The notes: a model not told the origin generated them from the sequence alone. Positions 32,809 to 56,977 are shown, numbered from the stretch's first letter. The stretch: 64,000 bases of DNA from an uncultured cyanobacterium (GCA_937121005.1 CAKZKB010000529.1:48784-112783), one strand, 5' to 3'. Translations and numbers: made by a program.

Positions 32809-33628
32809 GTTTCCATTAGTTCAGCTTCGGGTGAAGCCGGAAGCAGTGTGGCTTCAATTAAACATCGGGACTATCTATTGTTTCCATTAGTTCAGCTTCG
32901 GGTGAAGCCGGAAGCGATCCCGTTCTGGCCTTAAACGGCGACTTGTTGTCCACGTTTCCATTAGTTCAGCTTCGGGTGAAGCCGGAAGCTTTCATGGCAA
33001 CAGCAAGCCATCCGGATTGCCGGAGTTTCCATTAGTTCAGCTTCGGGTGAAGCCGGAAGCTTTCACCCTGATTTACAAATGGCCTGGGACCTTCGTTTCC
33101 ATTAGTTCAGCTTCGGGTGAAGCCGGAAGCCTTACAAACCGATCAGCGTGAAGATACTGACCCTGTTTCCATTAGTTCAGCTTCGGGTGAAGCCGGAAGT
33201 TTTATTGCGTATAAATTTGCTTACTGGATTGAATGGTTTCCATTAGTTCAGCTTCGGGTGAAGCCGGAAGTCTCAAACATGGCGTGGAAAAACCGTTATT
33301 GCCAGTTTCCATTAGTTCAGCTTCGGGTGAAGCCGGAAGCACTACACAACTGATAATCCGCGGATCCAAAATGCCGTGTTTCCATTAGTTCAGCTTCGGG
33401 TGAAGCCGGAAGCAACAATCGCGACGATGTCGACATCAGTGGAAACAGTTTCCATTAGTTCAGCTTCGGGTGAAGCCGGAAGTTTAGTTATTGTGCTTCC
33501 AAGGGTCAGAAGCTTGTCTGCATTGTTTCCATTAGTTCAGCTTCGGGTGAAGCCGGAAGTCACAGATGAAGGCGGAAGTACTCTGACCTACGGGTTTCCA
33601 TTAGTTCAGCTTCGGGTGAAGCCGGAAG
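32809..33628 (-). CRISPR. CRISPR array 1: 12 repeats of 35 nt and 11 spacers of 34-42 nt; transcribed on the minus strand from the leader at 33629+
   Basis: The plus-strand repeat is GTTTCCATTAGTTCAGCTTCGGGTGAAGCCGGAAG. Repeats start at 32809, 32880, 32954, 33025, 33095, 33165, 33236, 33305, 33378, 33448, 33525 and 33594. Confidence 0.95.
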
Positions 33629-34094: not shown

Positions 34095-38454
<4,360 letters not shown>

Positions 38455-38455
38455 C

Positions 38456-39268
38456 GTGAACCATCGGTTGACTTATTTATATTTACTCTCTCCTTTGCAT
38501 ACGGGAGGAGCGAGCCAAGAAGGTAACGTTGTGGGGATTGCTAGGGAAACGCATACCGATCTTCCCTATCTTCCATCGAGTAGCATTCGAGGGCGCTTGC
38601 GGGCTGCTACACCGGAAACCGATCGCATTCGGTTGTGGGGAAATACCATTGGTGATGTAGCCGATGGAAATGCCGAAAACTTGACGCAAGGCGGGCTTTG
38701 GGTCGGAGATGGAGCCTTACTTTGGTTTCCGGTTCCTTCTCTCAGTCATGGCGTGGTTTGGGTCACATCCCCGTTTTTATTGCGTCGCTGGTTGCGTTTT
38801 GTCGGGCAAACGCAGGTCGAATTACCATCACCTGGAGCCTTTAGTGGGGGCAATGGCGAGAGTTTGTACCTTCGCGACGCAGTGTTTCAAACGACAGATC
38901 TTCACCCCTGGGAGAATTGGCACTCTTTTGTTCCCACTGGCAGTCGCGAAACCGAAACCATTCAGCGTACCTTTATCCTTAGCGATCGCGATTGCACCGT
39001 GCTCGTGCAGTCAAGTTTGTGGAGGCAAGTGAAAGTCAAACTCGATGACACTAAAACCGTCGAGGGAGGATTTCGTTACGAGGAGGCGATTCCCCCCGAA
39101 ACAGTCATGTACTTCCCCTGGGGATCGACAGTAGCCGCTAACGGCAAAGGATCTGGGGCGGTACAGACCCTCGAACAACTTCTCAGTGGCGACTCAGCTT
39201 GGCAATTTGGCGGTCAAGAAAGTTTGGGACGCGGCTTAGTCGATCTGTGGAACTTTACGGAGAACTAA
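38456..39268 (+). CDS. cmr4: Cmr4 (Cas7-family backbone RAMP)
   Basis: The GTG start lies 7 nt after GGAGGA. LYLLSPLHTGGAS...RETHTDLPYLPSSSIRGRLRAA matches the Cmr4 N-terminal pattern. The C-terminus has GGQESLGRGLV. Confidence 0.85.
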   Translation: MNHRLTYLYLLSPLHTGGASQEGNVVGIARETHTDLPYLPSSSIRGRLRAATPETDRIRLWGNTIGDVADGNAENLTQGGLWVGDGALLWFPVPSLSHGVVWVTSPFLLRRWLRFVGQTQVELPSPGAFSGGNGESLYLRDAVFQTTDLHPWENWHSFVPTGSRETETIQRTFILSDRDCTVLVQSSLWRQVKVKLDDTKTVEGGFRYEEAIPPETVMYFPWGSTVAANGKGSGAVQTLEQLLSGDSAWQFGGQESLGRGLVDLWNFTEN

Positions 39269-39273
39269 ATCTT

Positions 39274-39702
39274 ATGAATTACGATCCGCGCAGTATTGCC
39301 AGTAAAGTGTATAACAACTTACAACAGTTACACGATCGAACCCCATCTGAGAGCGATCGCAAAGAGCAGAAAACGCAAGCTGTCGAGATTTACAGCTATT
39401 TGTCTGCTTGGGGATTGCTGCGGTTGAAAGCTGAAGAGTTTTCCCTGCAAAACCAACCCCAAAAACAAAAAGTCATTCGGTGCTTTTTTCGTACTTTTGC
39501 AGAAATCGTGTCTCCCGACGCTCCCCAACAATTTCAGGAGCGAGAAGGGCTGCAAAACTTGGCGAATGTGAATCGTCTGAGTGCCAGCGAATATTTAGGG
39601 TTAACTGGGGTAGCCCTGCAACTGGGACGCGAATTTGCATTTTGGGCTGAAGCCGTTTATCCCAAAGACGCTCCCGCTTCTACCACACCCGCTCGCCCTT
39701 AA
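39274..39702 (+). CDS. cmr5: Cmr5 (small subunit, Cas11-like)
   Basis: It is a 142-aa helical protein located between cmr4 and cmr6. It contains YLSAWGLLRL. Confidence 0.7.
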   Translation: MNYDPRSIASKVYNNLQQLHDRTPSESDRKEQKTQAVEIYSYLSAWGLLRLKAEEFSLQNQPQKQKVIRCFFRTFAEIVSPDAPQQFQEREGLQNLANVNRLSASEYLGLTGVALQLGREFAFWAEAVYPKDAPASTTPARP

Positions 39703-39713
39703 ACCATTTCATC

Positions 39714-41435
39714 ATGGCTCCAAACATCTGGCTCGAACCACAACAACCTAACCTATCATCTAATGCAAGTTTCGTCGAATACCTGCGCTGGATGCGGTTT
39801 CTAACTGGAGATGGAACAGTTGATAGCGGTACGATTCTCGAACTGTTCGATCGCTTTCGAGAAACAGCAACTTTTACCGAGGATCTCAATCGCCGTTGCG
39901 CTCGCATCCGTCGCTTAGCCGACGAATCGTTTGAAGCCAGTTGTCCCTGGCGCGTTCGCGTGGGAGGAACTCGCGGCCCCGAACAAATGCTACTCCCGGC
40001 ATTTGATGCGTTGGGATTGCCTTACATTCCCAGTAGCACCCTGAAGGGGGTGGCTCGCAATGCGGCTGCTCGAGAGGCTAACGAAGCGGAAGTGAAGCGC
40101 ATTTTCGGCACGATCGATGGCGATACAGGCAGCATGGGGCAGGTTGTGTTTCTCGATGCTTACCCTACAAGCGACGATCGCTTAGGGGGGTTGCAGTTGG
40201 ATATGGCTAACCAGATTTGGAAGTGGGATGGAGATTCGCCCCCTGAATACAATACCAACCCCAATACCTTCGTTTCTCTAGAAAAACCCACCTTTGTTAT
40301 TGGATTGCGTCGGGGATTCAATTGTGACGAGCAAACCTTTGCTCGCACCGTGACTTGGTTGAAAAAAGGCTTGATTGAAGGTATCGGAGCGCAAGTGAAT
40401 ACGGGCTACGGTACTTTGGAAACGGAGGGAGTGTCTAGCGATCGGCCGATATTTAGGCTGTTGTTCGATATTGAAGGACAACTCATACATGGAAATCAAC
40501 AATTTAAGGGGTGGAACTGGAGCGATGATGCAAATACTTGGAAGCCTCCCGGACAAGCAATTGCCGAATTACGACCGACGGCCTTTCGTTCGGTAATGCG
40601 GTACTGGTTCCGAGTGTTTGCGTTAGGGATTTTATCGCCTAGGGACGTTCGAGATCTAGAACTCAAAATATTCGGTGGTATCGAGCCGGAAGCCAAAACG
40701 GGTCTGTTTCGCCTCGAACTGGTTCCAGTAGAAGAAATTCAAAAACCGAGTGCCAGCGAATCAGGTCGGGCTAGCGGTCAGCTTGTTTTCAAGCGCTGCC
40801 AACACGCATCCTATCAAAGCAGCGATGCGAAGCAAACCCCCAAGAAGTTTGAGAAGGATATCTCTATTTTTCTTAAAAAGTTAACATGGTTGATGTTTCA
40901 TCTTGGTGGTGTCGGTCAAGGAGCGCGGCGACCCTGTTACGATCGTCGAAATCGTCCTCGCCCTCCTTACTGGCGTGGAGCGACCTTAATTCCCGACCAT
41001 CCATCAGAGATGTGGCAACGTCCTCGAAACGTCACCGAGTTAAAAAATAGCTTTCGTAACAACTTGCGAACGTTCTATAAGGCAACTTTATATCTAAAAG
41101 GGATGCAGGGAAACCCAAGAATTCCTAACCTGCGCTCGACTGACTGTGCTGAAGTTGCCGACGAAAACTGTCGCATTGTGGCTGTATCGGGGCCGGTGCA
41201 AAATGCGAAGCCTTTTGCCTTGTGGAAGTTACACGAACAGGCCAACTTAGGTAACGGTCAATACGACCCCGAACTGTGTGGGTCTATGGGTGGCCCGCCC
41301 TCTCCGATTTGGATTGCCAAAGTCGATCGCCTCCAAGTTGTCACCATCTTTGATATTACCAATGGTAAACGATTCGACTATTTTGAAACTTTGACCAGCC
41401 AACCTGACGCTCAAATACTCTTTCCACTAGGATAA
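39714..41435 (+). CDS. cmr6: Two-RAMP protein: Cmr6-like N-terminal half fused to a Cmr1-like C-terminal half
   Basis: The first half has LGLPYIPSSTLKGVARNAA, GQVVFLDAYP and GIGAQVNTGYGTLE. The second half has LRPTAFRSVMRYWFRVFALG, KIFGG and FHLGGVGQGARRP. Confidence 0.7.
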   Translation: MAPNIWLEPQQPNLSSNASFVEYLRWMRFLTGDGTVDSGTILELFDRFRETATFTEDLNRRCARIRRLADESFEASCPWRVRVGGTRGPEQMLLPAFDALGLPYIPSSTLKGVARNAAAREANEAEVKRIFGTIDGDTGSMGQVVFLDAYPTSDDRLGGLQLDMANQIWKWDGDSPPEYNTNPNTFVSLEKPTFVIGLRRGFNCDEQTFARTVTWLKKGLIEGIGAQVNTGYGTLETEGVSSDRPIFRLLFDIEGQLIHGNQQFKGWNWSDDANTWKPPGQAIAELRPTAFRSVMRYWFRVFALGILSPRDVRDLELKIFGGIEPEAKTGLFRLELVPVEEIQKPSASESGRASGQLVFKRCQHASYQSSDAKQTPKKFEKDISIFLKKLTWLMFHLGGVGQGARRPCYDRRNRPRPPYWRGATLIPDHPSEMWQRPRNVTELKNSFRNNLRTFYKATLYLKGMQGNPRIPNLRSTDCAEVADENCRIVAVSGPVQNAKPFALWKLHEQANLGNGQYDPELCGSMGGPPSPIWIAKVDRLQVVTIFDITNGKRFDYFETLTSQPDAQILFPLG

Positions 41436-41439
41436 GACA

Positions 41440-43245
41440 ATGCCAACTAAATCCATTCTCATTGCTAACATCGGTAACTCCGATCTGGTAGTCAAGCATC
41501 CACAATTTGACTACCACTTACCCATCTTCGATCGCAAAGAACCTAACGACCCAAAAGAAACGCTAACGCCTGAAGAAGAAGAGGCGTGGCGAGAGCGAAT
41601 TCAGTATGCTAAGATTCTTGGAGATGAGTTAGGCGTATTTGGTGATGGAACTTCTAAGTTTCCATTTCGAGAATTTACAAAAAAACTCTTGCAAGACTAT
41701 CGCTCTCATCCAGATAAATGGAAGGAACTCCTGCGACCCGCCCGAATTGGAGGTGTAATTAACTTTGTCAAAGAGAATTATGACGTGAAAGACGTTTATA
41801 TATTTGTCACCGATCAAAAGCCCCCACAATTTCAAGATTCTGTTTATCTGTTCGATATTCTCAAAATCTGGTTCGATCGCAATCACCCTCAGATAAAATT
41901 GCATGACATTCTCATAGAACCGACAAAGGCTGCCAACGATCTAGACTTAATGATGGCCGAATACGCCAAGCATTTCATACAGGTTAAAGGCATTCGAGAT
42001 GCAGATTGCTTCTTTGTCAGTATTAAAGGTGGTACGACACCAATGCAGATGGCGTTACAATCACAGGTACTCTATGCCAATCAGGAGCATTTGTTTATCG
42101 ATCCGATCTTGTCAAAGAAACGGGTATTAGATGGCGAATTTTCCAATTGCGAAACAGCTTCTTTTTGGGAATCTCGCCGCATTCAAAAATACCAAACGGT
42201 TAAGCTGCTGCTCGATCGCTGGGATTTTGACGGAGGGCGATCGATTTTAGAGAGTTGGTTAAAAACACTTAATCGGTTGAAATCTTGGCAAGTTAAGGAA
42301 GTTGACAAGATCGACGGTAATATCCAACTAACTAATCGGGTTTTAGCAGCACTGCGTATGGGGATTGGGTACTTAAACCTTGACGCGCAAACTGCTAATG
42401 ATGAGTTCGACAAGAACCCCGTCTTGTCGAATCTTAATCTCAACGAACTAGAGTGTTGTCGAGACTATCCTCGTACTTCGGAAGATAACCAGTTTCCACG
42501 CTTGCTGAATTTGTACGCCCAGTGTTTTATTTTCTGGCAAGTCGATCGCATTGCCGATTTCTTGGTTCGCATGGGGTCGTTTTACGAGGAAACCCTGCAC
42601 GAACTGATTCGATCGCTCGATGGCGAACAATATTTCAATCGCAAAAAATGGCCCGATGATTGGTATTTAGATACCGAATTTGCTAAGCAGAATCCGGCTT
42701 TAACTAAAAGTTTTGCGAAGTTGGAAAAGCGCTCCCATAATACAGATATTTTTGACAAAAAAGGGAATTGGAATAACAAAAATAATAATGACAATTGTCT
42801 CAATCTTCGAGGGCGTTCTAGCAAACAAAATTTCGTTGCTGCTTTAGTTGAGTGTGAAAATAACGCCAGTTGGAGTGAAGCCTGGGAAGAGTTCGTATCT
42901 GCGACTCGTTCTCTCGACTATTGGTGTGCGAAACGAAATCAACTCATTCACAGTGCCAAAGGCGTATCCAAACAGCGACTGCAAGAAGAGTTCGATCGCG
43001 ATTTAGAATTGATTCGACAAGGGCAAATGAAGAACCATGAAATCCGTCGTACTCGCCCCCATGCTTGCCAACCGCACGAAATTCGCAAGCAAATGACCGC
43101 GATCGCCTCCAGTACCTTACAATTGATGGCAGCCGATGATTCCCTCAAGGAATATCTCAACCCCAACCGCAAAGACGACAACTTCTATCTCTACTCAGCC
43201 ATCGCCCAATGGGTGACAGAACAACTCGATCGCGATGTCACTTAA
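41440..43245 (+). CDS. CRISPR ancillary protein, CARF-like N-terminus plus HEPN-like C-terminus (Csx1/Csm6-class candidate)
   Basis: It has a Rossmann-like start (ILIANIGNSDL) and SIKGGTTPMQMAL, which resembles the CARF GG(T/F)K motif. It has a C-terminal R-x4-H motif (CAKRNQLIHSAKG). It lies immediately downstream of the cmr genes. Confidence 0.6.
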   Translation: MPTKSILIANIGNSDLVVKHPQFDYHLPIFDRKEPNDPKETLTPEEEEAWRERIQYAKILGDELGVFGDGTSKFPFREFTKKLLQDYRSHPDKWKELLRPARIGGVINFVKENYDVKDVYIFVTDQKPPQFQDSVYLFDILKIWFDRNHPQIKLHDILIEPTKAANDLDLMMAEYAKHFIQVKGIRDADCFFVSIKGGTTPMQMALQSQVLYANQEHLFIDPILSKKRVLDGEFSNCETASFWESRRIQKYQTVKLLLDRWDFDGGRSILESWLKTLNRLKSWQVKEVDKIDGNIQLTNRVLAALRMGIGYLNLDAQTANDEFDKNPVLSNLNLNELECCRDYPRTSEDNQFPRLLNLYAQCFIFWQVDRIADFLVRMGSFYEETLHELIRSLDGEQYFNRKKWPDDWYLDTEFAKQNPALTKSFAKLEKRSHNTDIFDKKGNWNNKNNNDNCLNLRGRSSKQNFVAALVECENNASWSEAWEEFVSATRSLDYWCAKRNQLIHSAKGVSKQRLQEEFDRDLELIRQGQMKNHEIRRTRPHACQPHEIRKQMTAIASSTLQLMAADDSLKEYLNPNRKDDNFYLYSAIAQWVTEQLDRDVT

Positions 43246-46120: not shown

Positions 46121-47173
46121 TTAACCTCCGACTGCAACGCTGGCTTCCGAGGGATTAACAACCCAATGGCGAGCGGGTAAATCGGACGGACGCACCAGAA
46201 ACGGGCGATAGTATTCCAAATCCCCCAGCAACACTTGCACGTACTGGCGAACTTGATGCTGCAAGCACTGGCGATAGGTCAAATCGCCCCGAACCATCGG
46301 AGTCAAAGCGATCGTCCGCAGCCGTTGTTCCCAGCGATCGAGAAACGCTTCCAACAGCATTTGCGAACGGCACTCGCGGGCCTCAACTTGGGGAACCGGA
46401 GCGATGGAAAACTCCACCACCAAATCGTCAACTAGAACCGGACGAAACTCGGCCACCCAATCGCAAATTAGGGGGAACTCGCACTCGTCGGAGGTATGCA
46501 AGTATCCCAAAGCCGGATCGACCCCGACTTCGCGAGCGAAATTGTCCAGAGTTTGGTGCAGCAGCACTTCCCCGACGCGCAACAATTGGAATGGCGAATA
46601 GGGAAACGGTGCGGCCGGTAGGTGCAGCGCTTTGGCATACTGGAATAACAGCGTCCGAGCCAGCCATTCTTCCAAAGCGCGATCGTAGTACGCCGTCGCC
46701 GTCGCACTGTAACCGCGCAACACCTCTAAAGACGGAGCCGCCAGCACTTCGTCTTCGAGAACCTTGAGAATGCGCTGCGTCGCCGTAATAGCGGGAGTGG
46801 CTCCCAAACCCACCAACTTACGAAGGACAACGCTGCTGTTGTGGATTTTGGCTCGCAAGAAACTTTCGGCCAGTTCCCGATAGCGTTCGCGGTTCTCGCT
46901 CAAATCGATTTGCTGCCAATGTTGGCAAGAACGGGGAAGATAGGAACGTCCGGCAAACTGAGCGCGATCGTCGAACAACAGCACCGGAATGTCATGCGAT
47001 CGCGCTAAGGTTTCCGCTTCGCACGTCAGGTGACAGTTGCCAAATAGGGCAATTTGGGAGACCATCTTGGCCGCGATCGGGCGACTGATGGGCGTGCGAG
47101 TGCCAATTACGAAATACTGTCGCTTGGCACTTAACTGAGAACCCGGTTGGGTTAAATAAATTGCAGGCATCAC
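46121..47173 (-). CDS. cas1: Cas1 (adaptation module A)
   Basis: It is 350 aa. Supporting segments are IYLTQPGSQLSAKRQYF, LRGYSATATAYYDRAL, LGYLHTSDECEFPLICDWVAEFRPVLVDDLV and adjacency to cas2. Confidence 0.9.
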   Translation of the reverse strand: MMPAIYLTQPGSQLSAKRQYFVIGTRTPISRPIAAKMVSQIALFGNCHLTCEAETLARSHDIPVLLFDDRAQFAGRSYLPRSCQHWQQIDLSENRERYRELAESFLRAKIHNSSVVLRKLVGLGATPAITATQRILKVLEDEVLAAPSLEVLRGYSATATAYYDRALEEWLARTLLFQYAKALHLPAAPFPYSPFQLLRVGEVLLHQTLDNFAREVGVDPALGYLHTSDECEFPLICDWVAEFRPVLVDDLVVEFSIAPVPQVEARECRSQMLLEAFLDRWEQRLRTIALTPMVRGDLTYRQCLQHQVRQYVQVLLGDLEYYRPFLVRPSDLPARHWVVNPSEASVAVGG

Positions 47174-47292
47174 GAAGCCTCAATCTCTACGCTTCCCATC
47201 GTGACAACCGCGTATTTAAGTACGGATCTAAGTTCGTATTTGCCGAATATGACTTTTTCTGAGACTTTGGAGATTCCCCTGCGGGGACGCTA

Positions 47293-47393
47293 CCCCTTTG
47301 GGGAATTCAAAATTCAGAATTCAAAATTCACCAATTCAGAGTTCGCGCATTACGACTGCCCCATTTTTAATTTTGAATTGGAGCGCAGCGACA
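47293..47393 (+). repeat. ~100-bp composite dispersed repeat, copy 2
   Basis: CCCTTTGGGGAATTCAAAATTCAGAATTCAAAATTCACCAATTCAGAGTTCGCGCATTACGACTGCCCCATTTTTAATTTTGAATTGGAGCGCAGCGAC. It is in the same orientation as copy 1. Confidence 0.85.
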
Positions 47394-47508
47394 CTTGTCC
47401 TCTCAGTCGCGATCGAGTAACATGGTAGCTGAGTCGCCTTCACGCCAAGGCCATCCACGACATATTACTGTAGGGACGATTCTCTTAGGTCGCCGCTACG
47501 CGAACGCA

Positions 47509-48090
47509 ATGATTGTAACTCACCCCAAACTGACATTCGAGGAATACCTAAACTATGACGATGGAACCGACACCTACTACGAGCTCGTGGACGGAGAGTT
47601 AGTTGAAGTGCCTTTAGCCAGTCGGCGACATTGGAAAATCTCGAAACGGTTAGAGCGCTTGTTTGAAGAACAGATCGCCGAACTCAATTGTAACTGGGAT
47701 GTCGGACGCGGTGATGTTGGGGTGAAAACGCGAGGCGGCAAAAGCGACAACAACCGCATCCCCGATGTCGTTGTTTTCAACAGCGAGACCGACTCCATTC
47801 TCGATGAGTCTAATATCTTAACCGATGCGCCAATTCTGGTTGTAGAAATTGTTAGTCCCGGCAAAGCGAATCGCGAGCGAGACTACATTGAGAAACGCCG
47901 AGAATACGAACAGATTGGGATTCCAGAATATTGGATTGTCGATCCCGATCGGCAGCAAATTGTGTTGTTGTCTCTAGAAGGTAAAACCTATCGAGAAGAG
48001 GTTTATACAGGCGATCGTCCATTAGTTTCCTCTACCTTTCCGGGGCTAACACTAACGTGCGATCGCGTTTTGGGGAGTCTTAAGATATGA
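47509..48090 (+). CDS. Uma2-family (DUF820) putative endonuclease
   Basis: YELVDGELVEVP, IPDVVVF and PILVVEIVSPGKANRERDYIEKRREYEQIGIPEYWIVDP are present. The track ORF starts at 47395, but the ATG at 47509 fits the family N-terminus. Confidence 0.85.
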   Translation: MIVTHPKLTFEEYLNYDDGTDTYYELVDGELVEVPLASRRHWKISKRLERLFEEQIAELNCNWDVGRGDVGVKTRGGKSDNNRIPDVVVFNSETDSILDESNILTDAPILVVEIVSPGKANRERDYIEKRREYEQIGIPEYWIVDPDRQQIVLLSLEGKTYREEVYTGDRPLVSSTFPGLTLTCDRVLGSLKI

Positions 48091-48159
48091 TATGACATGG
48101 GCTAGTCGATCGCTATATCGACCCCATTTTTAATTTTTAATTGATAATTTTTAATTGAA

Positions 48160-51100
48160 TTAAGCGCCTTTCCATCCTAAAATGGTATTGGCAACCGTGC
48201 CATCGCAGTCAGGATGGGCCAAAACGCGATCGAGTAACGGGGAAGTATCGCCCTCAACCCGACGCACGGCTAAAGCGATCGCCTGTTGGTTTCTCGGCGG
48301 TAGCTTGTCGAAATCGCCCTCAACAATCTCCGTTAAAATATTAGGATAGGGACGAGCGATCGCCGCTAGCAAATCGATAGCTTTCGCCTGTTTGATTCGC
48401 CGAAAATCCATCCGCAGTAACAACTGGCGCGTCGCCTCAGCCAAAGCATCGGCCAGATCTTCTCGATGCAATTGTGCCACTGCATTGGCAGCTTTCACGA
48501 AGGTTCCCGTTGTCCCCGCATCTAATTGTTTGATATTATCCAAACGTTCCGGTAAGGCTTCGAGCCAGTGGAGGGCAACGGGTAAAATCGTTCCGTGACA
48601 GCGCACCCATTCGCAAATCAAACTGCAAAGCTGTTGAATAATTTTGCGATCGTCGTCCTCTGCTAAAGCCCGTAGCCAACACTCGAATAAAAACGAGTCA
48701 ATGCGTTCCATAGGGTGGTTTAACAGCGCGTCCAGACCCGCCAAACGAACTCCCGCAAATCGCGATGTACTCAGCGCCAGTAAAGGCTCTAAAGTGGCAA
48801 ATTCTCTCTCCTTTGATAACTCTTCTAACGCTCTAGCTGCTGCCTGTGCGGTTTTCTGTTTGTTTTGGGTGGCCAGAGCCACCAAACTTTGCAATGCTTC
48901 CTCGTCCGTTTGACCCCGTTCGCAAAAGCGATCGATGCGAGCCACTTGTAGAGCGGGCTCGTTGACTAGATGAGGCAACCTCTTGTCAAGATCGGGAAGG
49001 GCTTCGAGTAACGTCCGTCCCGTATATTTAGCTTGTTCGGCAACGGGCAACTGCTGCATCAATTCTACCAGCAGATCTCCGACCCAAGGACAGCCTTCTG
49101 CTAAGGATAAGATCGCCGAAACCCAAGATGAGGGTAACGCTCGTGCTAGGGGTTCGCACCAGGCAGCCAGACGATTGCTTTCTTGTCCCGTCAAACCGGG
49201 GGACGCAGCTTTCACCACCTCCACCAAAGGCGTACTTTGCTCCGGTGGCGGTTGGGGAAGCCCTAGCACTTGACGGGCGATCGCCGGGCCGCCTCCTTGC
49301 TCTGAGGCTTCGCGCAGGGCGAAGAAATTCAGGTGCAGCCGTCGCGATACCCCTTCGAGACAGTCATCAATAATGGCCGCGATCGCCGCTTCATCTTCGG
49401 GGATACAACGCCCCACAGCCCGCGCTTGTACGACTTCCAACCCCGGTTTCAGAGGATCGTGCAACCGTTCCAACCATTGGGAGCCACTCAGATCCGGGTC
49501 GAATGTCGCCGCTAACAGTTCCCCCAACAGGCGAGCTAAATTTTCGCTGAGGCGTTTGGGCATGGGTTCGGCAAAAATGCGATCGCGCAATTCCCGTTGG
49601 CAGTCTCTCTCGGTTCCCGGCATCAAGTGCAACTCGACAATCTTGATGCGGCTGCCTTCAGCGCAAATGCGGTAGTAGCGAGCTAGTACCCGCAAGATCT
49701 CCGGCTCCAGTCCTTGGGACGCTCTCGCCATCAACTCATCGACAAGCCAACCGCTCAACTGCAAGCGTTCCTGGTGTTTTCCGGCTTCTCCTCGGCGATC
49801 GATGGCAGCCAGAGCTTCTTCGAGTTTTTGCGATATGGAGGTTTCCCCCGCCACGAGCAAGTCGCCGCAGGCTTGGGCGGCACTGGAGGCGACCGATCGC
49901 TCTCCATTCTCTAATAAAACCACCACCATCGACCAGGCTGTTTCCATCAGGGGTACGGCTGCCGAAGCCAGGGCTTGGCGGAAAATATCTTGCTGTTGTT
50001 TGGGGGCCGCTAGGGCGATGGGGAACAACCGTTCTAAGGCCCGAGCCGTCTCTCGAGCGGCGGCGGCGAAGGAAACGGCTCGAAAAGCGGGAACGCGCTC
50101 GATGCCCAAAACATTTTCAATGGTTTCAAATTCACCATCGTCAACGATACTTAACAGTTGGCGAACGGACGGCCACCAGTAGCTCCCCGCAATTTCCCCT
50201 TCCGGTGTGGCTAGAAACTCTAACAGGCGATCGCGGGACGGACGAGCGCTGTGACGAGTGAGCCAATAAGCAATTGCATATTCGAGTAAAGTTTGGTGGA
50301 AAAAGTGGATTTTCCCGTTGGGAAGTTGTTCGATAACCCCTTCGCTGAGCAAGTCGTCGTAAGCCGATGCTACCGTTGGGGACACTTCGATATCCAGTTC
50401 GTCTAAATAGACTGACTCTTGCAAGCGGTCTCGAGAGCGATCGAACAGCCAGCGCGTCAAGTGCAAACAAAATCGCTCTTTTTCTAGAGCGAGGAACGAC
50501 GTTCGACTGCCCTCGCTGCGGCTGTAGGTGACTTTTTCATCCCAGTAACGGCGATAGAGTTTGCTCACCGTTAAATCCCTGGGAACCGTGCCATCTTTGG
50601 CAAATAAATCGCACAGCAGCGCCAACAGTAAGGGGTTTCGGGTAATTTCCTGGAGCGGGCGACTGTCGGCCGATAAAGAGAGAACGCGATCGGCAAAACT
50701 CGCACCGCGATCGAGTCCTGAATGCTTGCTCGCAAAGGCTACGGCGGCTTCTCTTACTTCGTCGTCGCTAAATTCAGGCACGTTGTAGCGGTAGAACCAA
50801 GGCACGAGAGCGGGTAACTTTTGGCGCACGGGTTCGAGGAAATCGGAGTATTCGCGATCGCGGCACGTAAAAACAATGGTCGTTCCGCTTTCAACTAAGT
50901 TCTCTAGAAGTGGTTGTAAAGCGGTAATAAAGGGGCGGTTAACGACTAAATCTAACGTATCGATTAACAGCGCTCCGCGTCCGTATTGGGCATTGAGACG
51001 ATCGGCGGCCGTGCAAATCGAATCGCTTTGGCAACCGGCCCCTATGGCAAAAGCGCGATCGAGGGATTCAACTGTTGGCGTTTCAATGGTTAAAGAGGCA

Positions 51101-51597
51101 CACAAAATCAATCCTACCCAGGGGGTTCCAGAGGCGACCAACAGATCGTAAATGTTACCGAGAATGGTGCTTTTTCCGTAACCGGCCGGGCCAATTAAAG
51201 GGACAATATGAGGGTCGGCTTCTAAAGTGCCCCGCTCGATGGAGGGCATAAATTTACTGCGGACGATTTCCCGTTCGATGCGATCGAGAATGCGCGGTGC
51301 CAAAGCGCGGCGAGTGCCGATCGCGCTGCGAGTCATGGCGTTGAGTTCGCTATCGTCGTCCCCATCATCTACTGATTCCGATGCGGCGATGTCTTCCCAA
51401 TGCAGGTCGAGACGTTGGCAAATGTCGATGAAAATGGTGCGATCGACGGGTTTGCCGTTAAAAAACTTGCTGATGGGAGTCCAGGACGCAATCCCCTCGT
51501 CGGTTGCCAGATATTTTTGCGTCCAGTTGCGCCCGGCCAAAATGGCTTTGGCTCGTTGGATCCCTTCTGCCGATGCTCGCAGCGATCGCCCTGACAT
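48160..51597 (-). CDS. HTH-like N-terminal domain + STAND (NACHT-type) P-loop NTPase + C-terminal HEAT/ARM-like repeats (1145 aa)
   Basis: The N-terminus (LRASAEGIQRAKAILAGRNWTQKYLATDEGIASWTPISKFFNGKPVDR) is HTH-like. Walker A is IGPAGYGKSTILG and Walker B-like is ALLIDTLDLV. The C-terminal ~600 aa is a long alpha-helical repeat region. Confidence 0.8.
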   Translation of the reverse strand: MSGRSLRASAEGIQRAKAILAGRNWTQKYLATDEGIASWTPISKFFNGKPVDRTIFIDICQRLDLHWEDIAASESVDDGDDDSELNAMTRSAIGTRRALAPRILDRIEREIVRSKFMPSIERGTLEADPHIVPLIGPAGYGKSTILGNIYDLLVASGTPWVGLILCASLTIETPTVESLDRAFAIGAGCQSDSICTAADRLNAQYGRGALLIDTLDLVVNRPFITALQPLLENLVESGTTIVFTCRDREYSDFLEPVRQKLPALVPWFYRYNVPEFSDDEVREAAVAFASKHSGLDRGASFADRVLSLSADSRPLQEITRNPLLLALLCDLFAKDGTVPRDLTVSKLYRRYWDEKVTYSRSEGSRTSFLALEKERFCLHLTRWLFDRSRDRLQESVYLDELDIEVSPTVASAYDDLLSEGVIEQLPNGKIHFFHQTLLEYAIAYWLTRHSARPSRDRLLEFLATPEGEIAGSYWWPSVRQLLSIVDDGEFETIENVLGIERVPAFRAVSFAAAARETARALERLFPIALAAPKQQQDIFRQALASAAVPLMETAWSMVVVLLENGERSVASSAAQACGDLLVAGETSISQKLEEALAAIDRRGEAGKHQERLQLSGWLVDELMARASQGLEPEILRVLARYYRICAEGSRIKIVELHLMPGTERDCQRELRDRIFAEPMPKRLSENLARLLGELLAATFDPDLSGSQWLERLHDPLKPGLEVVQARAVGRCIPEDEAAIAAIIDDCLEGVSRRLHLNFFALREASEQGGGPAIARQVLGLPQPPPEQSTPLVEVVKAASPGLTGQESNRLAAWCEPLARALPSSWVSAILSLAEGCPWVGDLLVELMQQLPVAEQAKYTGRTLLEALPDLDKRLPHLVNEPALQVARIDRFCERGQTDEEALQSLVALATQNKQKTAQAAARALEELSKEREFATLEPLLALSTSRFAGVRLAGLDALLNHPMERIDSFLFECWLRALAEDDDRKIIQQLCSLICEWVRCHGTILPVALHWLEALPERLDNIKQLDAGTTGTFVKAANAVAQLHREDLADALAEATRQLLLRMDFRRIKQAKAIDLLAAIARPYPNILTEIVEGDFDKLPPRNQQAIALAVRRVEGDTSPLLDRVLAHPDCDGTVANTILGWKGA

Positions 51598-51623
51598 AAC
51601 CGAATCTTCCGTTTTTTTCTAAG

Positions 51624-51665
51624 TTAAATACGAAGTCATACAACAAATATACGAACTTAAATACG
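51624..51665. promoter_or_regulatory. Direct repeat TTAAATACG x2 (33-bp spacing) in the divergent STAND/RT intergenic region
   Basis: TTAAATACG occurs at 51624-51632 and 51657-51665, with a third TATACGAA between them. The intergenic region is only 107 bp. Confidence 0.35.
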
Positions 51666-51704
51666 CTCTTGCAACCATAGAAACTGAAGCCATTCGGTGA
51701 AACT

Positions 51705-52604
51705 ATGGAACTTTCTACAGAAAGTCTGTTTGTCTCGTGGCAGCACGTTCGCCGGGGCAGTCGCAGTGCGGGTGTGGATGGGATGACGGTAGATTTATTC
51801 TCCGCCAATCTCCAGCACCAATTGCAAATTCTCTTGTTGCAGTTGCAACAGGAGCGCTACGCGGCTCGTCCCCTAAAAGGATTTTACGTTCCTAAAGCCA
51901 GTGGAGGAAAGCGGTTGCTCGGCATTCAAACCGTTCGCGATCGTCTTGTGGCTCGCTGGCTCCTCGACGAACTCTACTGGCCCCTCGAAAACACCTTCCA
52001 AGACAACAGTTACGCCTATCGTCCGGGGCGCGGCATTCAAGCGGCGGTGCGTCACTTCGGATCCTACTATAAGTCGGGTTCGGCTTGGGTGATTAAAGCC
52101 GATATCGAAAAGTTTTTCGATCGCCTCTGTTGGGCGCTGTTGCTGTCTCAGGTGGAGAAACTGGCTCCCGACGATCGCTTGGTCAGCGTTATCGAAGCCC
52201 AACTGAAAGCAGGGTTTGTCCTCAAAGGGCGATATTTCAATCCCGGTCAAGGGGTCGCCCAAGGCGCGGTGCTGTCGGGAGCCTTAGCAAACCTGTATCT
52301 CAATGAGTTCGATCGTCGCTGTCTCGATTCCCGGTTGCGCCTCGTCCGTTATGGCGACGATTTTGCCATAGCCTGCGACAGTTGGCAACAGGCCCAGCAA
52401 GTTCTCGAACGGATCCGGGAGTGGTTGGGAACGGTTTATCTCTCTTTGCAAGCCGATAAAACCCACGTTTATTCCCCCGAAGAAGAGTTCATCTTTTTGG
52501 GCCATCGCTTTAGCAAGGGTCAGCTGAACGACCCCATGCCTTCCACTCCGCTTCGCTATGCGCTCCGCGCAGGCTACGCCAACGTTCGTGGCAGGGGGTT
52601 CTAG
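51705..52604 (+). CDS. Reverse transcriptase (group-II-intron-like, CRISPR-associated class); the last ~25 codons are probably IS-derived read-through
   Basis: RT motifs: GVDGMT, YAYRPGRGIQAAV, IKADIEKFFD, GVAQGAVLSGALANLYL, VRYGDDFAIAC and KTHVYSPEEEFIFLGHRF. Confidence 0.9.
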   Translation: MELSTESLFVSWQHVRRGSRSAGVDGMTVDLFSANLQHQLQILLLQLQQERYAARPLKGFYVPKASGGKRLLGIQTVRDRLVARWLLDELYWPLENTFQDNSYAYRPGRGIQAAVRHFGSYYKSGSAWVIKADIEKFFDRLCWALLLSQVEKLAPDDRLVSVIEAQLKAGFVLKGRYFNPGQGVAQGAVLSGALANLYLNEFDRRCLDSRLRLVRYGDDFAIACDSWQQAQQVLERIREWLGTVYLSLQADKTHVYSPEEEFIFLGHRFSKGQLNDPMPSTPLRYALRAGYANVRGRGF

Positions 52605-54109
52605 CATTCACAACCTTTTCCCGACTCTCCCCCGACGCGAGGTACAACATTCGGGCTCTCAGTTGCTTCTACTAAAACATTTGGGGCCACTCGCTCTAAC
52701 TCTGAGAGTTTCCCAAAGGAGGACGGGACGCGCCCGTTCAATTGCGAGTTGATAAGCGCTTGCTGCCAAGCCGACCCCAGGAGCCGTTCCGCCCCTTCAG
52801 ACCAAACCTTTTGAGCTTGTTTAATTGACAGCAATTGTTCTTCACCCTCCACAAATCGGGCCAAGAACGCTGAATACAAATCCCGTTGGGCAACGACTCC
52901 GCAACGGCATTGATGCACTCGTTGAGACAAGGATTTTTTCTCTCGCCGTCCGCAGTGGCACGTCTGAGAAAGAGCCGTCGTGCGCGTGGGAAATTCCTCT
53001 AGCCGTCCGCCAGCATTTTCAGCTTTTTGCTTCAAGCGAGAGACAAAACTTCCCGGTGCGCGAAGCCCCACTGACTTACCAAAGCACTTCTGAAAAGCAC
53101 GATAGGAGAGCTTTTCAGTTTTGATTGTATGTCCTTGTCTTAAAATGTCGTTAGCCATGCGACCGTGCAAACTTTTACGGTGCGCGGCTAGACGGCGGTG
53201 AATGTTGGCAAGTCGAGTTTCTGTACGTCGTTGCCGTTGAGATTTGTGCCATTGTTTTTTTCCAGGTTTTATCGTGCCGTTGGGGTTGTAGTTTTGAGGG
53301 TTGTTGGCGCGGCGCTGGCGGTCAATTTGGCGTTGTAGCCGCCGAACTTGTCGCGTCTTGTCGCCGAGTTCGGCAGCGAAAAGAGACAATCGAGCCTCCT
53401 GGCTGCCGACAATAGCAATGGTTGAGGGGCCAAGGTCGAGACCGATGGTATCCGTGCCGATAGAATTGCTAGGCTTTTGTAAAGGTTTACCTTCGTTAAC
53501 CAACTGAGCGTAAAAACGGTTCTTGCCGTTATACTTGCGCCGTACCAAGCGCACGTATTTAATCCGAGAGTTGAGTCCGTGCAGGATAACCGGATCGTTA
53601 CTTTTTAGGAGAGGAGAAAGTTTGAGATCGCCCCACACAAAGCTGCCTTTTGCCCAACGGATGCCTTGTTTGTTCGTTTTCCCCTCTAGAGAATCCATTT
53701 GATTTTTACCCTTAAAGCGCACTCGCTTGGCACGACCGAATAAAAGGCGCTGGCTAGCCTTGAAGGCCCGAGTTGCTAGTGTTTGGGCAGTATTCGAGTC
53801 AATATGCTCGCCGATCCACGAATGGCGAATCCGAGTAGCGTAGGCATGAAGGGCATACTCGGAATAGTGAAATTCTTGGTTGACGACATTAAAGGCTCGG
53901 GTGCGCTCTTTCCCTGGCGGCATTTTTCGCGCTCGGGCGTGCGCCTTACTTTGTCTCATTAGCCTAACCCGTTTGAGAGCTTCACCCAAACAGGCATTGT
54001 AGAGTTGCCGTCCGGCTTCGAGCCGTACCAACAACACCTGTTCCTCGACCGGGTTAACCTGGAGAGGAATCTCGGTGATAAAGGTGGGCGTAGGCTGGCT
54101 TCTCGGCAT
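52601..54109 (-). CDS. tnpB: TnpB (IS200/IS605 accessory RNA-guided nuclease family), 502 aa
   Basis: It has a C-terminal zinc ribbon and RuvC-III region (CHCGRREKKSLSQRVHQCRCGVVAQRDLYSAFLA). A basic helical N-terminus and GLDLGPSTIAIV (RuvC-I) are present. Confidence 0.9.
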   Translation of the reverse strand: MPRSQPTPTFITEIPLQVNPVEEQVLLVRLEAGRQLYNACLGEALKRVRLMRQSKAHARARKMPPGKERTRAFNVVNQEFHYSEYALHAYATRIRHSWIGEHIDSNTAQTLATRAFKASQRLLFGRAKRVRFKGKNQMDSLEGKTNKQGIRWAKGSFVWGDLKLSPLLKSNDPVILHGLNSRIKYVRLVRRKYNGKNRFYAQLVNEGKPLQKPSNSIGTDTIGLDLGPSTIAIVGSQEARLSLFAAELGDKTRQVRRLQRQIDRQRRANNPQNYNPNGTIKPGKKQWHKSQRQRRTETRLANIHRRLAAHRKSLHGRMANDILRQGHTIKTEKLSYRAFQKCFGKSVGLRAPGSFVSRLKQKAENAGGRLEEFPTRTTALSQTCHCGRREKKSLSQRVHQCRCGVVAQRDLYSAFLARFVEGEEQLLSIKQAQKVWSEGAERLLGSAWQQALINSQLNGRVPSSFGKLSELERVAPNVLVEATESPNVVPRVGGESGKGCEC

Positions 54110-54160
54110 TGCCTGGTCTTTTTGTAGAGACTAAACTATTATACAGCTATAGCGTAACTA

Positions 54161-54565
54161 ATGCAAGAGATGACAGACTTTAAATCGAATCGCAATATTG
54201 TCTACTCCTGTACTTACCACGTTGTTTTTTGTCCGAAGTATCGCCGCCCCGTCTTAACGAATGGCGTTGACGAACGCTTAAAACAGATCGTTCGAGAGAT
54301 CCTTGCCGATCTCGAATGTGGCTTGCTAGAATTGGAAATTATGCCAGACCACGTACACTTGTTGGTTGGGGTCGATCCTCAGTTCGGCATTCACAAAGTT
54401 ATCAAGAGAATTAAAGGACAATCGTCCCGACTTTTAAGACAAGAATTTCCTTGGCTCAAAAGTCGGCTGCCCAGCTTGTGGACAAACAGCTACTTTGTGG
54501 CGACGGTTGGTGGCGCTCCGATTCAAGTTGTTAAGCAGTACATTGAAAACCAAAAGTCTCACTGA
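54161..54565 (+). CDS. tnpA: IS200-type Y1 (HUH) transposase TnpA
   Basis: YHVVFCPKYRRPVL, MPDHVHLLV and SLWTNSYFVATVGG are hallmark motifs. Confidence 0.95.
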   Translation: MQEMTDFKSNRNIVYSCTYHVVFCPKYRRPVLTNGVDERLKQIVREILADLECGLLELEIMPDHVHLLVGVDPQFGIHKVIKRIKGQSSRLLRQEFPWLKSRLPSLWTNSYFVATVGGAPIQVVKQYIENQKSH

Positions 54566-54853
54566 CAATAAGCGGAAAAGGCTGTCTCTGTGAGGGGTAG
54601 CACTTCCTCCCCATGTCTGAAGCCAGGGGCTACCGTGCTACCCCTCACGCTCCCCGATTTTCAGGTGTACGCGCCGCCGCCACCGCCGCCCGTACAGCTT
54701 CCGGGTTGGCGAATTTTCTCGCGCAGTTCGGGGGATCCGGGGCCGCGACCGGAGCCGAAACCGCCGCAATTAGTCGGCGCACCCCTCGCGTGCGATCGCC
54801 TCAAACCCGTTCGTTATTCTGTTGCCCGTTTAGAACACATTTGGAACTCTACC

Positions 54854-55864
54854 ATGACCACACTTTACGTTACCGACCAGGGCGCGTACATCAGCGTCTA
54901 TCGCTATCAATTTCAGGTGTTTTACCAGCGCCAGCTTCGGATTAAAGTCCCTGTCAACCAAGTCAGTCAAATCGTATTGTTTGGCTGTTGCAATCTCTCT
55001 CACGGAGCCGTCAAACTCTCCTTGAGTCGGCGGATTCCGATTCTGTTTCTCTCCCAAACCGGACGCTATTTCGGACGGTTGAAGGAGGAAGGACGGGCCA
55101 AAGTGGATTACTTGATGCAGCAGGTGAAGTGCGCCAACGATCCGGATTTCGTCCGCCGCCAAGCGGAGGCGATCGTTGCCGCTAAGTTGCACAATTCTCG
55201 CGTGCTGTTGATGCGCTTGAACCGTCGCCGCTCCGATCGGAATCTGCTGGTTGAGAAGGGGATTGACGAAATTGCCGATTTGATTGTGCGTCTGCCCGCC
55301 GCCGATTCCCTTGATGCACTACGGGGCTACGAAGGTCATGGGGCAACCCTGTATTTCCAAGCGTTAGGGTCTCTGTTTGTAGGGGAATTCGCCTTTGAAA
55401 AACGCAGCAAGCGACCGCCCACCGATCCGGTTAACAGTTTGCTCAGTTTGGGTTATACTTTCTTAAGTCAGAACGTTTTTTCCTTCGTTCTCATGTTGGG
55501 ATTGCATCCCCATTTTGGCAACCTGCACGTCCCTCGGGATAATCATCCGGCCCTGGTTTCGGATCTGATGGAGGAGTTTCGCGCTCAGTTAGTCGATTCG
55601 TTGGTGTCTTATCTCATCAACAAGAAAATCTTCGAGCCGAGTGACTTTACTCCCCCGGACGATCGTGACGGCGTGTATCTCCATCCCCACTCGCTTAAAA
55701 AGTTTGTTAAGCATTGGGAGGATAAGTTGCAGCAGTCCATCGTTCACCCCCATACTAACGTCCGTGTCCCCTTGCGGCGCTGTATTGAGTTGCAAGTGCG
55801 CGAGTATCTGGCCGCTTTGATGGGAGAGGTGGAGGTCTACCGTCCCATGACCTGGAAATGGTAA
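54854..55864 (+). CDS. cas1: Cas1 (adaptation module B, RT-associated); the frame is open 88 codons upstream, to 54590
   Basis: MTTLYVTDQGAYISV..., LRGYEGHGATLYFQAL, NSLLSLGYTFL and HVPRDNHPALVSDLMEEFRAQLVDSLV are present. It is followed directly by the array 3 leader. Confidence 0.9.
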   Translation: MTTLYVTDQGAYISVYRYQFQVFYQRQLRIKVPVNQVSQIVLFGCCNLSHGAVKLSLSRRIPILFLSQTGRYFGRLKEEGRAKVDYLMQQVKCANDPDFVRRQAEAIVAAKLHNSRVLLMRLNRRRSDRNLLVEKGIDEIADLIVRLPAADSLDALRGYEGHGATLYFQALGSLFVGEFAFEKRSKRPPTDPVNSLLSLGYTFLSQNVFSFVLMLGLHPHFGNLHVPRDNHPALVSDLMEEFRAQLVDSLVSYLINKKIFEPSDFTPPDDRDGVYLHPHSLKKFVKHWEDKLQQSIVHPHTNVRVPLRRCIELQVREYLAALMGEVEVYRPMTWKW

Positions 55865-56069: not shown

Positions 56070-56977
56070 CTTCCGGCTTCACCCGAAGCTGAACTAATGG
56101 AAACTGGAGTTATCCATCCGTTTATTTCGCTGGTCCTGTTCTTCCGGCTTCACCCGAAGCTGAACTAATGGAAACCCGCAGCTGTCTGGTCGCCTGTGGC
56201 AACAGTTGCCGCCTTCCGGCTTCACCCGAAGCTGAACTAATGGAAACCGGCGGTAGTTCGGTACCGCCTGCCCCCCCGTAGTTGGAGCTTCCGGCTTCAC
56301 CCGAAGCTGAACTAATGGAAACGGTCTCCCAAATGCCAGGAGCCCCGTTCGTTTAACCTTCCGGCTTCACCCGAAGCTGAACTAATGGAAACTAGCTAGC
56401 GTTTTTTGTTTTCCTTAGCCTGTTTAAGGCTTCCGGCTTCACCCGAAGCTGAACTAATGGAAACATCTGTTGCTGGTTGCTTGGCGGCGGTACCGGAGTA
56501 CCGACTGCTTCCGGCTTCACCCGAAGCTGAACTAATGGAAACGATGATGCCCTGAACGCCGCCGATTTTCTTTAGATGGGCTTCCGGCTTCACCCGAAGC
56601 TGAACTAATGGAAACTCTGGTGGTTCCACCACACACGTTCCGCACTTCATACATCTTCCGGCTTCACCCGAAGCTGAACTAATGGAAACTCGCGAACTAG
56701 ATTACGTAATGGCGGTTGTGGTTGTTGCTTCCGGCTTCACCCGAAGCTGAACTAATGGAAACTGTCGTCGTCGTAGCTAACAGTGCCTTCCAATTACGGC
56801 TTCCGGCTTCACCCGAAGCTGAACTAATGGAAACCTGAGATATCGTAGATACACGACCCTCAGATATAAAAACTTCCGGCTTCACCCGAAGCTGAACTAA
56901 TGGAAACGAGGGATATTGAAAATTCCGACACCAAGAAAGATGCTTCCGGCTTCACGCGAACCTCTATTATTGGCCTC
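56070..56977 (+). CRISPR. CRISPR array 3: 12 intact 35-nt repeats plus a degenerate terminal repeat; 12 spacers of 35-43 nt
   Basis: The repeat is CTTCCGGCTTCACCCGAAGCTGAACTAATGGAAAC, the reverse complement of the array 1 repeat. Repeats start at 56070, 56141, 56213, 56288, 56358, 56430, 56508, 56581, 56655, 56728, 56800 and 56873. A degenerate copy lies at 56943. Confidence 0.95.

Follow-up and report, generated by a model that had tools for sequence, protein, structure and literature searches.

INTRODUCTION

MalT of Escherichia coli, AfsR, and GutR are STAND/LAL transcription activators. Here, we analyzed a gene for a helix-turn-helix (HTH)-STAND-helical-repeat protein in a 64,000-nucleotide stretch of DNA from an uncultured cyanobacterium (GCA_937121005.1 CAKZKB010000529.1:48784-112783; the whole stretch is called the window below), where the gene lies inside a CRISPR locus and faces a reverse transcriptase (RT) gene. 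Comparison with other genomes indicates that the protein is probably a signal-dependent transcription regulator dedicated to both CRISPR adaptation operons of this locus, acting through an operator-like repeat element. An earlier reading, made from the DNA letters alone (the sequence-only reading), had left two options, a sensor-regulator of RT-Cas1 spacer acquisition or an independent defense gene nested in the locus. The first is favored by synteny and by the intergenic repeats, which are part of a conserved operator-like element found together with the HTH head; both lines of support are at the sequence level. Because the same element stands before the second cas1 operon, the predicted regulon comprises both adaptation modules.

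Regulators of adaptation genes have been described in archaea. Csa3a of Sulfolobus islandicus activates adaptation cas genes and so triggers spacer uptake, and it is called MarR-like in the passages of PMC4333418 that describe it; Csa3 proteins are elsewhere said to carry a CARF domain and a winged HTH. For bacterial NACHT proteins, the relevant passages of Kibby et al. (10.1101/2022.07.19.500537) place transcription-regulatory domains among the possible "adaptor" heads. In type III-E systems, according to the sections of 10.1101/2022.08.17.504292 on these proteins, some Csx30 C-terminal domains are DUF4384, and cleavage of Csx30 by Csx29 (TPR-CHAT) is proposed to alter gene expression.

An association of STAND genes with adaptation modules seems to be catalogued already. 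The legend to Fig. 6B of Altae-Tran et al. 2023 (PMC10910872) has NACHT, HTH, CHAT, and RVT among new CRISPR adaptation-module associations, and Table S3 of that paper has entries for "Acquisition-associated NACHT" and "DUF4384 + TPR" (3.9 kb and 762 nucleotides [nt]). No operator, regulon, or regulator claim is made in its examined passages. The relevant parts of Shmakov 2018 (10.1101/270033) tie STAND NTPases to degenerate I-E loci only, as do those of PMC8730458, and the consulted portion of the 2025 classification paper (PMC12669027) names STAND nowhere but in the legend of a figure about new type III variants. A term search of Silas 2017 (PMC5513706) returned no mention of an HTH-STAND regulator, a literature search found no description of an HTH-STAND regulator of RT-cas1, and the term "nSTAND5" retrieved no papers in that search.

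RESULTS

The HTH-STAND gene is kept head to head with adaptation genes

As the sequence-only reading had described, the gene lies between two adaptation modules, with the second cas1 on one side and the RT and Cas1 genes on the other (Table 1), and it diverges from the RT gene over a 107-bp intergenic region (positions 51598 to 51704). That reading had made its proposal depend on whether STAND and RT-Cas1 genes are associated in other genomes. A protein search returned 185 relatives at E ≤ 0.001 among 8,000 scored candidates; these were mostly cyanobacterial, and the best non-self match was 43% identical. The genome itself has one full copy of the protein, and matches at E ≤ 1e-20 occur in 10 of 41 related genomes.

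A query with the family alignment gave 75 loci, which were classed by a fixed rule. Seven were cut by contig ends, one had no match on the expected strand, and 47 were usable, each having an HTH-bearing relative and 1.2 kb or more of DNA upstream of it (one more, with too little flank, was not counted). RT or cas1 was divergent within 1 kb in 38 of the 47 loci, stood elsewhere in the locus in eight, and was missing in one. Some loci of Oscillatoria and Geitlerinema have a cas1 that lacks an RT as the divergent partner, so the link is to adaptation genes generally. Nineteen relatives had no HTH match although their predicted start lies within the contig; for 15 of them, among which are Acidobacteriota, Gemmatimonadota, and other noncyanobacterial records, the locus contained no cas1 or RT, and the remaining four align to the rear part of the query only. 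Comparison of loci shows that the gene is kept head to head with RT-cas1 or cas1 across cyanobacteria.

An operator-like element precedes both adaptation operons

Two exact copies of TTAAATACG, 33 bp apart, had been noted in the intergenic region, and both are present (51624 to 51632 and 51657 to 51665). The description of a repeat occurring twice needed revision, however: the copies are part of a four-copy repeat, in which they correspond to sites 1 and 4. The repeat unit, an 11-mer close to GTATATGASTT, was spotted by side-by-side reading of divergent intergenic regions, and a weight matrix was built from 63 instances. Clusters of at least three matrix hits fell in many loci at two places, the RT/STAND regions and the regions upstream of Cas1_A-type second cas1 genes. 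Forty-four elements from other genomes were aligned over ~81 positions, with the window's own elements left out. On the strand opposite the cas gene, the element consists of a box like CTACATTTCCATCGTTGCAG followed by sites 1 and 2 and then sites 3 and 4, with one base between the members of each pair and a spacer of ~10 nt between the pairs. All four sites are 11-bp direct repeats, and those of a pair stand 12 bp apart.

A profile search (nhmmer) of the 5.58-Mb genome found just two sites below an E value of 1, one in the RT/STAND intergenic region (element 1) and one upstream of the second cas1 (element 2); the next best sites had E values of 3.8 and 4.3. As a sequence pattern, the intergenic repeat exceeds chance, because a profile of 44 elements from other genomes matches this region at E = 8.1e-6 genome-wide. 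A matrix scan of the same genome gave 767 single hits and one cluster of at least three, in the RT/STAND region. Element 1 is shortened, being without the 12-nt interpair spacer. The type III-B effector genes (34095 to 43245) had no match before them in the genome-wide profile search. By this comparison, the element is shown to precede both adaptation operons and nothing else in the genome. An element upstream of the second cas1 was also found in eight other loci (L014, L015, L047, L048, L049, L055, L065, and L068).

In two loci of a Geitlerinema-type lineage (L010 and L064), the intergenic region before the STAND gene has no canonical 11-mers but contains CCGGTCTGC twice, at a distance of 12 bp. 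Comparison by eye of the HTH recognition helix with the repeat sequence gave no clear pattern of covariation. In Microcoleus (L040 and L042 to L044), a long CRISPR array separates RT-cas1 from the STAND gene downstream of it. The repeats of that array include ATTTGACTT, a sequence similar, perhaps by coincidence, to the operator 11-mer.

A scan of 401 genomes with a 20-nt pattern found a match in 24, and since a reversed control also matched many genomes at one mismatch, the scan is a poor measure alone. Three regions (L092, L093, and L094) had exact pattern matches but neither the element nor cas genes. The protein scan paired with it scored two candidates per genome and missed the HTH-DUF4384 forms described below, and no two-by-two claim is made from these two scans.

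The element tracks the HTH head across two sensor architectures

An RT-Cas1-anchored search was limited to the best 80 of 367 relatives, 76 of which had at least 1 kb upstream. The element was upstream of RT in 62 of these 76 loci. An HTH-family gene accompanied it in 58 of the 62 (26 with the STAND gene adjacent, 21 with HTH-DUF4384, 5 with the head only, and 6 with the gene elsewhere). Among the 14 loci without the element, 5 had an HTH gene and 9 did not.

The second architecture is well seen in four Nostocales genomes (L089, L090, L091, and L095), all with the element before RT-cas1 and three with another before a second cas1. These came from pattern matches in genomes for which the protein scan had given no STAND match. 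Their divergent gene encodes an HTH-DUF4384 protein of 249 to 250 amino acids (aa), the head of which is 45 to 50% identical over aa 1 to 72. In the two loci that were read (L090 and L091), this gene is followed by one encoding a TPR-CHAT protein of 1,223 to 1,253 aa. Cross-genome comparison shows, then, that the element co-occurs with the HTH head whichever of the two sensor architectures is attached.

Predicted promoter layout

In the alignment, the box ends on the cas strand in a TAGAG(T/A)-like −10 candidate that precedes the start codon by 20 to 40 nt. The stretch from approximately −42 to −32, which would be covered by site 1, shows no good −35 hexamer. Because a missing −35 hexamer is typical of activator-dependent promoters, we infer an activator-type layout for the cas promoters. 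On the regulator side, TTGAC occurs in the interpair spacer of 11 of the 25 elements that face an HTH gene and in none of the 19 that do not. This suggests that the regulator's own −35 lies in the spacer; sites 3 and 4 would then overlap the regulator promoter, with autorepression as the expected result. In the window, where the spacer is gone, the only promoter-like match on the regulator strand is TTGCAA-17-TATATT, over the box and sites 1 and 2. A scan for promoters and terminators gave results not above shuffles.

The layout bears on the sign of the proposed regulation. A repressor would keep the adaptation genes off until a signal frees it from the operator. At the predicted cas promoter, the −35 would lie partly under site 1, as suits a repressor; XRE-type proteins such as HipB, the best PDB match of the head (see below), are repressors; and unchecked adaptation is generally held to be costly. 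The lack of a good −35 hexamer at those same promoters argues the other way, being typical of activator dependence, and activation is the mode of the characterized STAND transcription factors, MalT and AfsR among them. Weighing these points, we consider repression unlikely, though a serious contender, and activation the more likely mode.

Six RNA-labelled runs contain the stretch. Three RNA runs and one probable DNA run were examined, as contigs with flat cover; a single contig of 7,725 nt spans positions 48127 to 55851 in two of the RNA runs.

Domain architecture of the HTH-STAND protein

The 1,145-aa protein contains the two motifs by which a P-loop NTPase had been proposed, GPAGYGKST (aa 136 to 144) and LLIDTLD (aa 210 to 216). 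In a 30-sequence family alignment, G139, K142, S143, T144, D213, and D216 were invariant, as were R246, H434, and the winged-helix motif FFHQT (aa 432 to 436). An AlphaFold2 model built on 30 relatives had a mean predicted local distance difference test score (pLDDT) of 86.7 and a predicted template modeling score of 0.69. Foldseek searches with this model returned NOD2, NLRP, and NLRC4 chains as well as Avs4 and Avs3, with E values of 2e-9 to 6e-8; with NOD2, NLRP, NLRC4, and Avs4 the model aligns over 800 to 1,000 columns. Pfam scores stayed below their cutoffs, with 20.8 bits for NACHT (PF05729; gathering score, 26.7) and 24.7 bits for nSTAND_NTPase5 (PF25199; cutoff, 34). A relative, P0085, reached 34.8 bits for the latter, and many relatives carry a precomputed nSTAND_NTPase5 label. 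With invariant Walker motifs and a fold closest to NOD-like receptors (NLRs), the proposed NACHT/STAND P-loop holds.

The protein has the features expected of the STAND superfamily: a Walker A motif of the form GxxxxGK[ST], a Walker B motif of the form hhhhD, a helical/winged-helix extension, and a tripartite arrangement of head, NTPase, and repeats. The strict NACHT signature after Walker B is D[GAS]hDE, as given in the relevant passage of 10.1101/2022.07.19.500537. The window protein reads D213-T-L-D-L here, differing in the small residue and the final E, so we term it a NACHT-like STAND NTPase rather than a strict NACHT protein.

The N-terminal HTH-like domain seen earlier was corroborated in three ways. 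A profile of 15 N-termini matched the XRE-type repressor HipB as its best PDB match (E = 0.0096), Pfam HTH_26 matched homologous heads in relatives (24.7 bits on the L090 head; cutoff, 22), and aa 1 to 72 were modeled as five helices with a pLDDT of ~90. At the profile level, the head can be assigned to the XRE/Cro-C1 HTH proteins. At the other end, residues ~435 to 1142 are all-helical in the model, consistent with the HEAT/ARM-like repeats that had been suggested. This arm is the fastest-evolving part of the protein: mean pairwise identity in the family is 0.33 over the last 585 residues, 0.57 in the HTH, and 0.53 to 0.57 in the other parts. The protein had no match in PADLOC or NCBIfam; no CARF family was found in it by Pfam, NCBIfam, and PADLOC scans, and no MalT-type family was reported by Pfam. 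The cell-killing effector head of the Avs class is not present, the head being an HTH.

In the same genome, contigs C647 and C492 (L002 and L003) hold open reading frames (ORFs) of 382 and 432 aa with an N-terminal head 28 to 36% identical to the STAND HTH and with different C-terminal parts.

Head exchange and the case for an antiviral gene

Among 121 family proteins, 93 have the HTH, 20 have other N-termini, and the rest are N-terminally cut or have an unclear head. Pfam recognized TIR/SEFIR (1 protein), CHAT (9), PNP_UDP (2), caspase (1), EAD10 (1), and TPR (1) among the 20 other heads and no domain in the remaining 5; the sister proteins with TIR/SEFIR, CHAT, caspase, PNP, or EAD10 heads are 33 to 38% identical. 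In a tree of the NTPase region (110 rows, with N-terminally cut or unclear rows and the nearly identical P0002 left out; a quick search, with long branches flagged), the head label requires at least 4 to 5 changes, and one caspase-headed protein is nested among HTH-headed ones.

These data bear on the second option of the sequence-only reading. The gene might be an independent Avs/NLR-type antiviral gene in a defense island, with the HTH as a DNA-sensing or targeting head and no part in cas regulation. In favor of this are the Foldseek matches to Avs4 and Avs3, the effector-headed sisters with repeated head swaps, the patchy distribution (10 of 41 related genomes), and the fast-evolving C-terminal arm. 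However, no PADLOC model matches the protein and it has no killing domain, and the divergent pairing with cas1 or RT (38 of 47 loci within 1 kb) is far tighter than co-location in an island. Moreover, the operator-like element also stands before the second cas1, 4 kb away, and the HTH and element persist where DUF4384 replaces the STAND part. An independent antiviral gene is therefore improbable, and a regulator of the adaptation genes remains our preferred reading.

The CRISPR locus and its split RT-Cas1

The HTH-STAND gene sits in one type III-B CRISPR locus with arrays at both ends, which are mutually inverted and have the same number of identical repeats (Table 1). That the divergent gene encodes an RT was correct as far as it went; the gene has only 299 codons because an IS200/IS605-type insertion sequence (IS) splits an RT-Cas1 fusion. 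Aligned to 10 fused RT-Cas1 proteins, RT homology ends near position 52523 and Cas1 homology restarts at 54662, with ~2.14 kb of IS200/IS605 between them, inside the linker. RT-Cas1 is a single ORF of 656 to 711 aa in all 12 relatives checked. In the window, the RT ORF runs on into residues encoded by the IS, and translation of the Cas1 part would have to begin at a GTG within the IS end. Run contigs have the same IS-joined form, and one copy of this IS was found in the assembled genome. With RT-Cas1 split and the operator-like element without its 12-nt spacer, the proposed regulatory circuit looks damaged in this genome, which points to possible decay of its RT module; both the gene for the regulator and the module with the second cas1 appear undamaged.

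Two conserved ORFs of 188 and 122 aa probably share an operon with the second cas1, and their homologues adjoin Cas1_A-type genes in other loci. Neither had a match in Pfam, NCBIfam, or PADLOC; Atlas gave only subthreshold leads (RelE/ParE-like clusters at 0.86). No recognizable cas2 was found in the window for either adaptation module. Contigs of all four runs examined join position 47321 to 48122 with 25 other letters between, so the Uma2-family gene is missing from some variant of this stretch, located either in the community or at another place in the genome. GAATTCA-like heptamer repeats are found on both sides of the stretch from 47321 to 48122.

TABLE 1 Positions in the window of the HTH-STAND gene, the operator-like elements, and neighboring CRISPR features
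Feature	Position	Strand	Evidence or remark
HTH-STAND-helical-repeat gene (P0001)	48160-51597	−	Intact, 1,145 aa, ATG start; homologues over 100% of length
XRE/Cro-C1-type HTH, aa 1-72, predicted DNA-binding output	51382-51597	−	Homology and model
P-loop NTPase core, aa 126-290	50728-51222	−	Walker A GPAGYGKST, Walker B LLID213, conserved R246
Helical and winged-helix arm of STAND module, aa 291-560	49918-50727	−	Invariant FFHQT; Foldseek NOD2, NLRP, Avs4
C-terminal all-helical repeat arm, aa 561-1145, presumed sensor	48163-49917	−	Model
Operator-like element 1, RT/STAND intergenic	51621-51686	−	nhmmer E = 8.1e-6 genome-wide
Element 1 box	51665-51686		
Element 1 sites 1 to 4	51654-51664, 51642-51652, 51633-51643, 51621-51631		
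Operator-like element 2, upstream of second cas1	47194-47267	+	nhmmer E = 3.5e-7 genome-wide
Element 2 sites	47212-47222, 47224-47234, 47245-47255, 47257-47267		
RT part of split RT-Cas1	51705-52604	+	Pfam RVT_1 1.2e-31; 299 aa
IS200/IS605-type insertion	52524-54661		Pfam Cas12f1-like_TNB and Y1_Tnp; junctions mapped by alignment
tnpB of IS200/IS605	52601-54109	−	
tnpA of IS200/IS605	54161-54565	+	
Cas1 part of split RT-Cas1	54590-55864	+	Pfam Cas_Cas1 1.5e-88
Second cas1, Cas1_A type	46121-47173	−	Pfam Cas_Cas1 7.7e-31; first gene past element 2
Two conserved ORFs, 188 and 122 aa	45029-45996	−	3' of second cas1
Uma2-family gene	47395-48090	+	Between second cas1 and STAND gene
Type III-B effector genes cmr2, cmr3, RAMPs, and csx1 (CARF-HEPN)	34095-43245	+	Library scans
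CRISPR array 1	32809-33628	+	12 identical repeats
CRISPR array 2	56070-56907	−	12 identical repeats, inverted

DISCUSSION

If the HTH-STAND protein regulates the adaptation operons, a plausible mechanism has the following parts: (i) the C-terminal helical repeats would sense a cue, possibly related to infection; (ii) ATP-dependent oligomerization of the NACHT-like module would gather several HTH heads; (iii) the N-terminal XRE-type HTH would bind the four direct repeats; (iv) at sites 1 and 2, which would abut or overlap the −35 of the cas promoter, the oligomer would most likely activate transcription; and (v) at sites 3 and 4, which would overlap the regulator's own promoter, it would exert autorepression. 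Head-to-tail repeats appear to fit a STAND oligomer better than a symmetric dimer.

Several observations weigh against this proposal. No HTH gene is seen in the available DNA of 4 of the 62 RT-Cas1 loci with the element, and 5 of the 38 adjacent loci have no profile match. In the two Geitlerinema-type loci the recognition helix looks canonical, yet the repeats differ. The Microcoleus relatives lie kilobases from RT-cas1 with an array between and have no element before the STAND gene. In the window itself, the target gene RT-cas1 is broken and the operator-like element shortened, the protein's own head has no Pfam match at E ≤ 0.05, and the promoter scan is not above chance (3 found versus 3.7 expected). 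Metatranscriptome contigs cover the region evenly and are uninformative as to transcription, starts, or strand. The loci are interrelated, so that the counts overstate independence and describe a pattern rather than a test on independent samples. Finally, another factor could bind the element.

That last alternative, in which a host regulator or Cas1/RT itself occupies the element while the HTH-STAND protein acts posttranscriptionally, e.g., by recruiting or licensing RT-Cas1 at DNA, accounts for the four loci just mentioned and for one with the element before cas1 and no HTH neighbor (L100), but we give it little credence, as an HTH gene is present in 58 of 62 loci with the element versus 5 of 14 without it, four head-to-tail repeats suit an oligomerizing HTH protein, and the element is at promoters and not at array leaders.

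A dedicated regulator of both operons being the better account, the nature of its signal may be considered. The fast-evolving arm suggests a cue related to infection, as do the death-effector sisters, in which TIR, CHAT, caspase, or PNP heads are joined to this module. More tentatively, an NLR-like infection sensor may license CRISPR memory: once the repeat arm detects such a cue, the oligomer would switch on RT-cas1 and the second cas1, and spacers, including RNA-derived ones, would be taken up mainly during attack. Coupled to this idea, and to be taken with it as one conjecture that we hold with more doubt than confidence, the HTH head and operator may form a fixed cassette to which the sensor is attached exchangeably, as either a NACHT-repeat arm or DUF4384 with a TPR-CHAT neighbor.

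When a cell decides to acquire spacers is largely an open question, and few dedicated regulators of adaptation are known, Csa3a being the example we found; uncontrolled spacer uptake risks self-targeting. The present analysis offers a widespread cyanobacterial candidate regulator, for which a putative operator is defined and a regulon of two operons predicted. Its sensor class is that of animal and plant innate immune receptors, which makes the idea that innate sensing triggers adaptive memory directly testable; if true, innate sensing and adaptive immunity would be linked in a bacterium. In the sister proteins this sensor module would drive suicide effectors instead. Nature may therefore have already run the experiment of rewiring one sensor between cell suicide and gene regulation, in the form of the swappable sensor and the death-effector sisters.

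Several known systems are close parallels. Like the protein described here, MalT-type regulators combine a STAND NTPase, a helical repeat sensor, and an HTH, with several asymmetric direct-repeat sites upstream of target promoters, and signal- and ATP-dependent oligomerization is the switch to be expected in both. Direct repeats of this kind were found as four 11-bp copies in 44 elements, with two instances in the window. MalT differs in that its HTH is C-terminal and LuxR-type and its NTPase belongs to the MalT clade, whereas the protein described here has an N-terminal XRE-type HTH and a NACHT-like fold, and its predicted regulon consists of CRISPR adaptation genes.

Csa3a shares with the present proposal a dedicated regulator encoded beside an adaptation cassette. 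It is small, without a STAND NTPase or repeat arm, and belongs to an archaeal type I-A system, whereas the locus described here is cyanobacterial type III with RT-Cas1; the CARF sensor of Csa3-type proteins is not in the window protein, according to Pfam, NCBIfam, and PADLOC scans. Bacterial NACHT and Avs proteins (PDB 8dgf and 8dgc) have the same head-NTPase-repeat architecture, match in fold, and also have swappable heads. In contrast to these, the protein described here has no effector enzyme or PADLOC match, reads DTLDL at Walker B, and is tightly coupled to cas1 genes and an operator-like element. The Nostocales gene pair for HTH-DUF4384 and TPR-CHAT, which concerns the sister form and not the STAND form of the window, is reminiscent of the Csx29/Csx30 pair of protease and substrate.

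Both kinds of regulator, STAND proteins that control transcription and proteins that control CRISPR adaptation genes, are already known. The entries of PMC10910872 cited above fit the two regulator forms in size, a likeness drawn from the descriptions and sizes in that table. The present analysis adds the putative operator, the second operon as a predicted target, and the DUF4384 sister form.

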